In this document: positions 16,053 to 17,988 of the stretch, one piece after another
Layout of the letters: every line of letters begins with the position of its first letter
Position numbering within the stretch: position 1 is the stretch's first letter
Source of the DNA: a virus
Taxonomy: Duplodnaviria > Caudoviricetes
Direction: 5' to 3' (one strand)
Virus record (IMG/VR): IMGVR_UViG_3300024309_000100
Location: 1 to 32,687 of that record
DNA: 32,687 bases
The notes under the pieces: model-generated
Seen by the model: the letters and a program-made list of their open reading frames with translations, nothing else
Database searches by the model: none
What the model was told of the DNA's origin: nothing
Position numbers and translations under genes: made by a program

Positions 16053-16565
16053 CTATTCGCCGGCCAGGTAGTCGGCCAGCATCTCTAGAACGTCCTGCTC
16101 GTCCTGGCTGGAAAAGCCCAGGAATGGCCGGGCGGGCATGCCAGGATGATGCACCTCGGCGACGACACGGCGGCTCGTCGACGGGCCAAAGGCCAGCGCC
16201 TTGCCATTGCGCGGGCGAATGATCCGCGCCGGCAGGCCGAACTGCTGCGCCCTGGCATAGGGCACGTTGGTGCCGATCCGCACCTGGTTGCCCTCTACCT
16301 GGTAGCGAATGCTGTTCTGCAGGTGCAAGGATTCTCGAAGGGGGCCAGGGCCAACCTTCAGAGCAAGCGTGCTGGCGGCCAGTGGCACCCAAGGGGCGCC
16401 ATTGGGATCGACACCCTGGCCGAAACGGTCGAAGGTGCTGGCCTGCACGATCTCGCCGGTTTCCCCCAGGGCGTCGCGGAGATCGGCCAGGCGATGTTCC
16501 AGTTGCGCCAGGCGTTGCCCCACCTGCCCCCCGTCGATGACGACATCGATGCTCATGCCGGTCAT
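16053..16565 (-). CDS. Virion morphogenesis protein, Mu gpG
   Basis: F..G.DP.G..W.PL, IGTNVPYA..QQFG and MPARPFLG motifs; AGGAG SD. Confidence 0.92.
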   Translation of the reverse strand: MTGMSIDVVIDGGQVGQRLAQLEHRLADLRDALGETGEIVQASTFDRFGQGVDPNGAPWVPLAASTLALKVGPGPLRESLHLQNSIRYQVEGNQVRIGTNVPYARAQQFGLPARIIRPRNGKALAFGPSTSRRVVAEVHHPGMPARPFLGFSSQDEQDVLEMLADYLAGE

Positions 16566-16579
16566 GGCATACTGCTCCT

Positions 16580-16717
16580 GCCCGCGCCTGGTAGAGCCGG
16601 CTTCAGGTAGTCCAGGACGCCTTCATCGGTGCACATGCCGCCCAGGGGCCGGCGCATGATGCTGAAGGTGGTTGTGATGGTTCGAGTCCATCCCCAGCAC
16701 GGGCGCCCCTCTTTTTT
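16580..16717 (+). ncRNA. Candidate tRNA-like non-coding RNA
   Basis: Perfect T-arm GATGG-TTCGAGT-CCATC (16676-16692), D-like arm, long central stem, paired ends, upstream TGG-CATACT, downstream T6. Confidence 0.65.
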
Positions 16718-17988
16718 CACTTGAATCGCTCCAGCCAGCGGTAGTTGGCGCTGGCGAGCGACACCTCAGACACCACCGATATCGTCCTGAGCCAGTTCGA
16801 GGCCAGGCGCTCCCTGCGCAGGGCACGGTGGCTCTTGTCGCGCACGTCCAGTTGGAAGACCAGCTTGATGACGCGCCCATCCCCCAAGCGCCGCGCGAAT
16901 ATCAGCACCGGTTGCTGGGTGGATTGGCCGCCTTCGCCCACATCCCACAGCACGGCCGTTTCCGGATCGGCCAGCCAGCGGGGCAGATTGTTCAGTTGGG
17001 CAGCGATGGTGCCGCGGGCCTCTTTGATGGACCGCAGCGCATGGTGCAGCTGATTGTCCACCGCGCCCAGCAGCGCCGTGGCCGGGGCGGGTGCGGCGAA
17101 TGCCCGGCCACCCGCGTCGATGCCTGCCTCCAGCGCCTGGACGGTGGCTGGCCGGAGAAAGCCCAGCGGGTGAGCCATGCCCTGCGGATATGCGCGCCCC
17201 TGCGCCTGCTCCTCGAGGACGCGGGCCACGGTCGCCGGCCAATCGGCAAACAGGTCCGTGGGCCGCTGCTGCGCATCGGCCAAGGCGATGCGCCGCCAGG
17301 ACGGCGGCAGCTGCATGACGCGCTCGCCCAACCGCACCGCCGCCGGCATCGACCCGGCCGCCATGCCGACGTTGTAGTCAAAGCCCGGATCGATGCCGGC
17401 AATGTCGTCGGGCGGTGTCGGGGCTTCATCGGGGCCATCCTTGCCCATCCGCCGCAGGTCACGCTCTGCCAGCGTGCGGGCGGTGCATTGGCAGCCGTAC
17501 CCGTTGGGACCGTAGTGCGTGTCCCACCACGGGTCATCCGCGCGCAGGATGACGCCATGCCACGCCAGGTGGTCTGGCCGCGGGTGTTTCACCGAATCGT
17601 TGTGGATGTATTGCAGATACGGCCGGCGATGCTTGATCGCCTGAATCTGCGCCCAGCGACCGGCCTGGTAGGAACTGCGCAGATTGGTCGTGTAGATGAT
17701 GCGGGTGCGCCAGTTGCGGCCGCCTTTGTAGTCCCAGCCGGTGCGAGCGACGATGGCGTCGAAGTCGCGGCGGAAATCCTCAATCGTCGCGCCGTCCAGG
17801 ACGGCCCTATCAACCGCCTTGCGCAGGTCATCCAGCAGGTCCACGCGCGCCGCGCCAGCCACCATGAAGCCGTGGGCGTGGTCCCCGCGCTGCAGGTCGC
17901 GCCAAGTTGCCGTGGGCACGTTGACCTTGCGTCGCCAGAACTCGGCCTGCTCGCGGAACGGCACATCGGTGGCGCCGATCTCAGCCAA
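16717..17988 (-). CDS. MuF head morphogenesis protein with ~215-aa C-terminal extension
   Basis: FMVAGA, RIIY.TN...Y.AGRW, RPDH.AWHG, PNGYGC.C and IDPGFDYNVG motifs; TTG start after GGAGG. Confidence 0.92.
   Translation of the reverse strand: MAEIGATDVPFREQAEFWRRKVNVPTATWRDLQRGDHAHGFMVAGAARVDLLDDLRKAVDRAVLDGATIEDFRRDFDAIVARTGWDYKGGRNWRTRIIYTTNLRSSYQAGRWAQIQAIKHRRPYLQYIHNDSVKHPRPDHLAWHGVILRADDPWWDTHYGPNGYGCQCTARTLAERDLRRMGKDGPDEAPTPPDDIAGIDPGFDYNVGMAAGSMPAAVRLGERVMQLPPSWRRIALADAQQRPTDLFADWPATVARVLEEQAQGRAYPQGMAHPLGFLRPATVQALEAGIDAGGRAFAAPAPATALLGAVDNQLHHALRSIKEARGTIAAQLNNLPRWLADPETAVLWDVGEGGQSTQQPVLIFARRLGDGRVIKLVFQLDVRDKSHRALRRERLASNWLRTISVVSEVSLASANYRWLERFK

Follow-up and report, generated by a model that had tools for sequence, protein, structure and literature searches.

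The question raised by this locus is what a predicted tRNA-shaped non-coding RNA does directly behind a MuF gene, in the place where an immunity gene would usually be found. The window, i.e., the whole 32,687-nt stretch that was analyzed, is a 32.7-kb provirus record of a Mu/B3-like prophage, in which Mu-like genes for transposase, B, portal, MuF, G, protease and major head protein were identified on the − strand. The gene for the MuF head protein (423 aa; 16717..17988, − strand; Phage_Mu_F domain at residues 54–170) ends with its stop codon at 16717–16719, and the RNA element was found on the + strand inside the 151-nt gap (F-G gap) between this stop and the start of the bordering gene G, which is predicted to encode a tail completion protein (Phage_tail_S; 16053..16565, − strand). 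MuF polymorphic toxins, as outlined in Jamet 2017 (PMC5576092), likewise have the MuF domain behind the portal gene and a C-terminal effector-like domain, with the partner directly behind the MuF stop as the usual immunity slot. The first-pass annotation had reported no small immunity ORF behind MuF, and this was borne out: an immunity ORF directly downstream of MuF, the hallmark of a MuF polymorphic toxin-immunity pair, was absent in the window, and none fits within the F-G gap. An off-frame ORF of 85 aa (16880–16623, − strand), which shares sequence with both the MuF end and the RNA, was taken to be a shadow ORF. Besides, an ORF resembling a DNA adenine methyltransferase was found at the end of the tail module (1–786, − strand).

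The RNA was predicted, from folding and from a match to the general model R2 described below, to be a 125-nt long-arm variant (16580..16704, + strand). The −10 box, closing stem, T-arm and T6 tract proposed earlier were all re-located at the same positions. The extended −10 box TG-G-CATACT (16565..16573, + strand), which overlaps the gene G start on the opposite strand, is present as claimed, but the box itself is a weak CATACT, and a promoter/terminator scan detected neither a promoter nor a terminator at the window RNA. It is followed by the 5′ strand of an acceptor-like closing stem (16580..16591, pairing with 16693/16694–16704), a U8-A9 linker with a D-like arm for which more than one pairing register fits (16592..16614, GG at 16606–16607), a long irregular arm in the anticodon-arm position (16618..16670) and the T-arm (16676..16692), all on the + strand. 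The T6 tract (16712..16717, + strand), a possible 3′ end, was found as described, overlapping the MuF stop, yet a T-tract is unconserved, being kept in only 4 of 32 homologues.

The T-arm GATGG-TTCGAGT-CCATC, with a 5-bp stem and a TTCGAGT loop, was the only T-arm with at least 4 bp in the window when both strands were considered. A 5-bp T-arm was obtained in none of 5000 shuffles of the F-G gap, and somewhere in 7.5% of 200 whole-window shuffles. The tRNA features present in the window RNA were this T-arm, with its TTCRAN loop, and the D-loop GG. In the folding ensemble, the T-stem (pair probabilities 0.93–0.96), the long arm (0.86–0.92) and the outer 5 bp of the closing stem (0.93–1.0) were favored, whereas the inner part of the closing stem reached only 0.03–0.09 and the D-stem drawn in the first-pass annotation, at 0.01 or less, was unsupported; a competing hairpin (16587–91/16612–16; p 0.9) outdid both. 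The long arm thus stood, although its inner part as drawn leaves out two bulged bases. A canonical tRNA register was also found to fit (G7 = 16591, U8, A9, G10...G18 G19 U20 A21 G22...C25 A26, C66 = 16693), with 3/4 pairs in the D-stem. The overall fold stability was no better than that of shuffles (z −0.09), and the full cloverleaf lay 4.8 kcal/mol above the computed optimum. The cloverleaf predicted for the window copy rests on homology, not on its own folding energy.

The earlier view that this is no tRNA gene was confirmed by ARAGORN and Rfam (including RF00005), neither of which gave a match in the window, and the position of the anticodon arm is indeed taken by a 53-nt irregular arm without a 7-nt anticodon loop, with no CCA at the end. 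A 5-bp anticodon stem with a 7-nt loop was absent in the window and in the homologues, in which this middle arm varies freely in length and sequence. With its 5-bp T-stem and no anticodon arm, the window RNA also differs from the allo-tRNA form (8/4 or 9/3; 12-bp acceptor branch, short T-stem, long V-arm). BLASTN of the F-G gap against phage records gave three short chance matches only, and apart from the source contig nothing homologous to the window RNA at the DNA level turned up; the covariation reported below therefore excludes its long arm. One RNA sequencing run gave flat contigs with a depth of ~17 over genes and gap alike, which is uninformative on transcript and strand.

MuF loci were drawn from phage records, viral contigs, genomes and metagenomes. 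A complete gene with a MuF-C domain was present in 191 loci (144 non-identical); five were dropped before clustering (one truncated at a contig end, three with frameshifts and one broken), and the remaining MuF genes were clustered into 56 representatives with <70% identity. Dozens of related prophages were found to hold such an RNA gene tail-to-tail with MuF. Antisense behind intact MuF alleles, a shared design was observed, consisting of a closing stem, a 2-base linker, a D-like hairpin with GG, a variable arm, a linker and a T-arm, the closing strand ending at the MuF stop. Thirty-two representatives with a canonical T-loop were scored automatically (closing stem mis-called in 2), and nine further ones with degenerate or displaced T-loops, including the B3-type, were judged by eye. 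In all 32 the closing stem ended −7 to +12 nt from the MuF stop, GG was present in the D-loop of 30, and 29 had TANNNT within the 20 nt that precede the closing stem (64/416 background 20-mers); an encoded CCA end, which is optional in bacteria, was found in none of the 32.

Covariation, the lack of which had been named beforehand as speaking against the RNA, was found in a plain MAFFT alignment of 29 sequences (compensatory change in 13/18 pairs) and in a second MAFFT alignment of 17 diverse sequences (14/17 pairs). These counts exceeded all 500 shuffles and all slid controls, with kinship among sequences inflating such counts. The closing stem is one of the elements with covarying pairs in the homologues. 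A G-C pair in columns 18/89 of alignment A6 was rejected as pairing evidence, as it never varies. The D- and T-loop bases were invariant across hosts. In a single case (L225:2462–2552, − strand), D-loop G18 and T-loop U55 were changed together to A and G, respectively, which is consistent with a preserved elbow contact. The RNA element is real and conserved, and at the level of aligned sequences the compensatory changes and the conserved −10 show selection on the predicted RNA.

Model R1 represents the short RNA subtype, and model R2, built without the window RNA, is general. The best R2 match in the window was 16603–16706 (20.9 bits versus 15.2 bits for the next one; rough E 0.003); as R2 puts the 5′ strand at 16603, this match backs the T-arm and its flanks, not the proposed closing stem. 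R2 misses the B3-type and other RNAs with degenerate T-loops. R1 gave no match in the window, the window RNA being unlike the RNAs of its nearest MuF relatives; long-arm variants were found in the window, L173 and L330. In phage B3, a 32-aa hypothetical ORF34 is annotated opposite the predicted RNA (L002:2740–2838) and is probably no gene.

One homologue (L295, 1 of 11 further loci) passed the Rfam tRNA threshold with 32.1 bits, and the RNA family is for this reason probably tRNA-derived; ARAGORN detected none of 30 homologous loci. A decayed host tRNA fragment, which the first-pass annotation had named as a finding that would speak against its reading, was not encountered, yet tRNA ancestry is likely. 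Such ancestry is what would be expected if the RNA were a neutral decayed tRNA remnant or a C4/CI-like antisense regulator of another phage gene. This is extremely unlikely, given the selection indicated by the compensatory changes and the −10, the lack of any Rfam match, to C4 or otherwise, in the window and 20 loci, and loops without complementarity to phage targets: the longest complementarity of the window RNA to the remaining prophage was 13 nt, which was equaled by 13% of shuffles and is thus not above chance.

The last 175 residues of the window MuF (16720..17244, − strand; His316, Arg319, Asn398, Thr402) were shown to be homologous to the C-terminus of Mu gp30 (HHalign 96.8%, E 2.9e-10). 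Pfam gave no match for these residues, and MuF_C was detected, below cut-off, in four relatives only. The domain model (pLDDT 89.8) resembles viral MuF-C proteins (BFVD matches named MuF C-terminal), with His316 in a helix and Thr402 in a strand. The same family is treated in the PBECR section of Iyer 2017 (PMC5512222), which counts MuF-C among the PBECR domains. There, MuF-C is described as having His in the first, N-terminal helix and Ser/Thr on a late strand, and as including the Mu gp30 C-terminus, a domain called inactive. In a wide fold search, in which all Z-scores were low (4.7–3.8 for BrnT, colicin D, RelE, YafQ and CDI toxins), 14 of the 15 first rows were ribonuclease toxins or toxin-antitoxin complexes, these among them, headed by BrnT (Z 4.7; rmsd 3.8, 76 aligned), colicin D (Z 4.5; 3.1, 84) and RelE (Z 4.5; 4.4, 79). 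Foldseek against the PDB with the domain model gave nothing significant at E 0.001, a PDB sequence search by domain profile gave one irrelevant match, and the C-terminal domain by itself found nothing in a viral scan; the profile was matched by at least 270 clusters at 50% identity. As judged from homology and predicted structure, the tail of the window MuF is a MuF-C/PBECR domain, a predicted RNase.

The presence of the RNA was found to follow the H-x-x-R motif of this domain, whose residues are probably catalytic. Among the 56 representatives, 34 had H-x-x-R and an RNA in the slot, none had H-x-x-R without RNA, seven had no H-x-x-R and kept the RNA, and 15 had neither (scoring was visual for three loci in which G had not been located and for one gap filled by an ORF). 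Several of the seven motif-less representatives with RNA have Lys, Arg or another motif at this position. In 14 representatives the gap measured ≤15 nt; none of these had H+R, and they were scattered over several places in the tree. The broken gene dropped from the set (L326) had H+R and no RNA. In Mu gp30 the homologous domain lacks the H-x-x-R helix, F and G overlap by 4 nt and there is no RNA, and MuF alleles such as those of JBD18, PM105 and Bhz63 are degenerate at equal length, with G abutting or overlapping them. Cultured Pseudomonas phage B3 offers an intact pair, and JBD18, PM105 and Mu offer natural controls without it.

Equal occurrence of the T-arm beside short MuF genes had been named as evidence against the pairing; the T-arm was found behind none of 31 short MuF genes, and where G was located the gap behind short MuF was ≤23 nt in 20 of 26. 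It was likewise found behind none of 89 long MuF genes of other families. The proposal that the T-arm occurs only with long MuF thus held in that short MuF lacks it, but the RNA tracks the intact H-x-x-R and not length as such. Gene G is not the partner of the RNA, because the RNA remains at the MuF stop where 360–1100 nt have been inserted before G. Together with the covariation and the co-occurrence with H-x-x-R, this supports the pairing with the MuF C-terminal domain that had been claimed. Fisher's test of RNA versus H+R gave p 1e-8 with kinship ignored. On the tree, RNA state changed six times and motif state nine times, with loss in several parts, and an underpowered independent-pairs test on supported branches gave four pairs (two the same way, none opposite, two uninformative; p 0.5). 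With only two supported pairs informative, correlated evolution of RNA and motif is suggested by the sequences.

The RNA could also be independent counter-defense cargo that lies at the F-G junction by chance and serves as a decoy, either for host anticodon nucleases or for defenses that sense tRNA. Copies away from MuF-C exist and the junction receives other inserted genes too, in line with such cargo; however, it is very unlikely, given that the RNA has no anticodon loop, that its presence follows the MuF active site, and that neither short MuF genes nor other MuF tail families have it behind them. Both this decoy reading and the C4-like one fit worse because they leave the dependence on the MuF active site unexplained.

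As the simplest account, it is somewhat more probable than not that the tRNA-shaped RNA binds and neutralizes the predicted MuF RNase as antitoxin or decoy, replacing an immunity protein. We infer this antitoxin role from the layout, the covarying fold, the MuF-C identity and the co-occurrence with an intact motif; the RNA appears to be needed only while the nuclease is intact, lies in the immunity slot, has its own predicted promoter and has the shape of the substrate that colicin-D-like enzymes usually act on, which argues for an antidote. In this mechanism, the RNA would be transcribed from a host sigma-70 promoter, both in the lysogen and at an early stage of infection, while MuF would be packaged in the head and enter the next cell alongside the DNA. 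There the colicin-D-like MuF domain would cleave tRNA or a comparable RNA of the host; the PBECR section of Iyer 2017 (PMC5512222) suggests that PBECRs may not cut tRNA. The RNA would keep the enzyme occupied by presenting a tRNA elbow that has neither an anticodon loop to cleave nor a CCA end to charge, and lysogens would be shielded against both their own MuF and the MuF of sibling particles. Upon decay of the active site, the RNA would be lost and F and G would overlap again, as in Mu. A strict cognate pair is made less likely by the fact that the window RNA differs from the RNAs found with its closest MuF relatives, and such subtype differences among close relatives suggest that the shared elbow, not the arm, matters, or that cassettes were swapped.

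Two further explanations would produce the same link to the active site. One is a type I-like cis-antisense antitoxin, with the convergent RNA pairing with the late mRNA at the F-G junction and causing its decay, or blocking leaky MuF expression in the lysogen, and the tRNA shape serving stability only. The RNA and the intercistronic stretch of the late transcript show full complementarity, the closing stem of the RNA ends near the MuF stop in all 32 scored homologues, and an exchange of RNA subtypes would be tolerated. We consider this unlikely, as the RNA barely overlaps the MuF coding sequence, lies 1.3 kb from the MuF start and would give no protection against a virion-delivered protein, and as neither the invariant D- and T-loop bases across hosts nor tandem copies would be needed. 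The other is that the MuF RNase depends on the RNA as substrate, guide or cofactor for processing, activation or targeting. It predicts the same co-loss, and the freely varying middle arm could hold specificity, but no consistent complementarity was found beyond the chance-level 13 nt given above, and the RNA occupies the usual immunity slot (Jamet 2017, PMC5576092); this role is decidedly unlikely. Neutralization by the RNA, if true, would explain a large group of MuF nucleases without an immunity gene, provide a testable function for the C-terminal half of the Mu-like head protein, and add tRNA mimicry as a means of inhibiting an RNase toxin.

In type III toxin-antitoxin systems (ToxIN, CptIN, TenpIN, AbiQ), an RNase is restrained by a structured RNA encoded alongside, and the antitoxin RNAs are pseudoknot repeats that lie upstream on the same transcript and are cut by the toxin. 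The MuF locus is similar to ToxIN-like pairs in that a predicted RNase has a structured RNA encoded beside it. It differs in that the RNA is a predicted cloverleaf, encoded on the opposite strand downstream of the gene and served by a predicted promoter of its own, and in that the proposed toxin is a virion protein of predicted BECR fold. The type III layout, with a tandem-repeat antitoxin upstream and co-transcribed, was not found; the window has a single convergent downstream copy, and tandems occur in a minority of homologues. The pair would thus act like type III without its layout, and is possibly a new class. Other small RNAs with T-like loops that mimic tRNA or are processed by RNase P are YrlA, among the bacterial Y RNAs, and phage C4/CI RNAs; unlike these, the MuF RNA has no Rfam match to either, no Ro60 partner and no antisense target. 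Allo-tRNAs and irregular tRNAs, as described by Mukai et al. (PMC5389517), include some that are non-translating and near toxin genes, and share a 4-bp T-stem with the short subtype of the homologues (the window T-stem has 5 bp), but they retain an anticodon and long variable arms and resemble tRNA-Sec, whereas MuF RNAs have a fixed partner and no anticodon loop or CCA.

The first-pass annotation knew of no description of such a pairing, and this held: an RNA partner of MuF-C/PBECR was not found in the full-text literature searched, a body that takes in few subscription papers; tables of Jamet 2017, Iyer 2017 or large RNA-motif screens (e.g., PMC10690425) could still list such RNAs. The PBECR section of PMC5512222 names no RNA partner or immunity factor and gives the activity as predicted only, and term searches of PMC10690425 and PMC8265657 gave nothing relevant.

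More broadly, and with somewhat less than an even chance, virion-delivered BECR RNases neutralized by exchangeable non-coding RNAs instead of immunity proteins may form a widespread class of phage conflict modules, with tRNA mimics for MuF-C, other folds for PBECR2 and sister families, and orphan and tandem copies as immunity arrays. Among 150 Pasteurellaceae genomes, R1 gave 42 matches in 30 genomes; matched by eye, 38 of the 42 were within ~600 nt of a MuF-C match, and 33 of 34 strong MuF-C matches had the RNA. The four R1 matches away from MuF-C were orphans or weak.

Long MuF genes with PBECR2 or other tails were observed to have gaps of 80–150 nt behind the MuF stop that contain, on the antisense strand, different structured elements with −10-like boxes and no T-arm (L017, L018, L019, L022, L029, L030, L044, L054, L062, L065, L087, L149 and L153, among others). 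Degenerate-looking PBECR2 alleles (L007, L035, L052, L101) had no gap when judged by eye. In L012 and L093, Arg replaces His, and a 585-nt gap with an ORF of 160–190 aa and no T-arm lies behind MuF. Two unlike tandem RNAs were found behind the MuF stop in L237, L235, L247, L210, L218, L231, L310 and L313; these look as if the RNA of an earlier cassette outlived replacement of the MuF tail, and the arrays resemble stacked immunity cassettes. Orphan RNA copies were found at L364:1800–1888 (G857:C1), L360:1501–1591 (G815) and L365:1816–1907 (G913:C22), the L364 copy being located behind a D5-like primase gene, with a Mor-like gene and Mu-like head genes following downstream. In Pasteurellaceae-type prophages, the F-G junction was also found to hold short convergent ORF pairs (L173, L206, L216, L220, L225, L226, L233).
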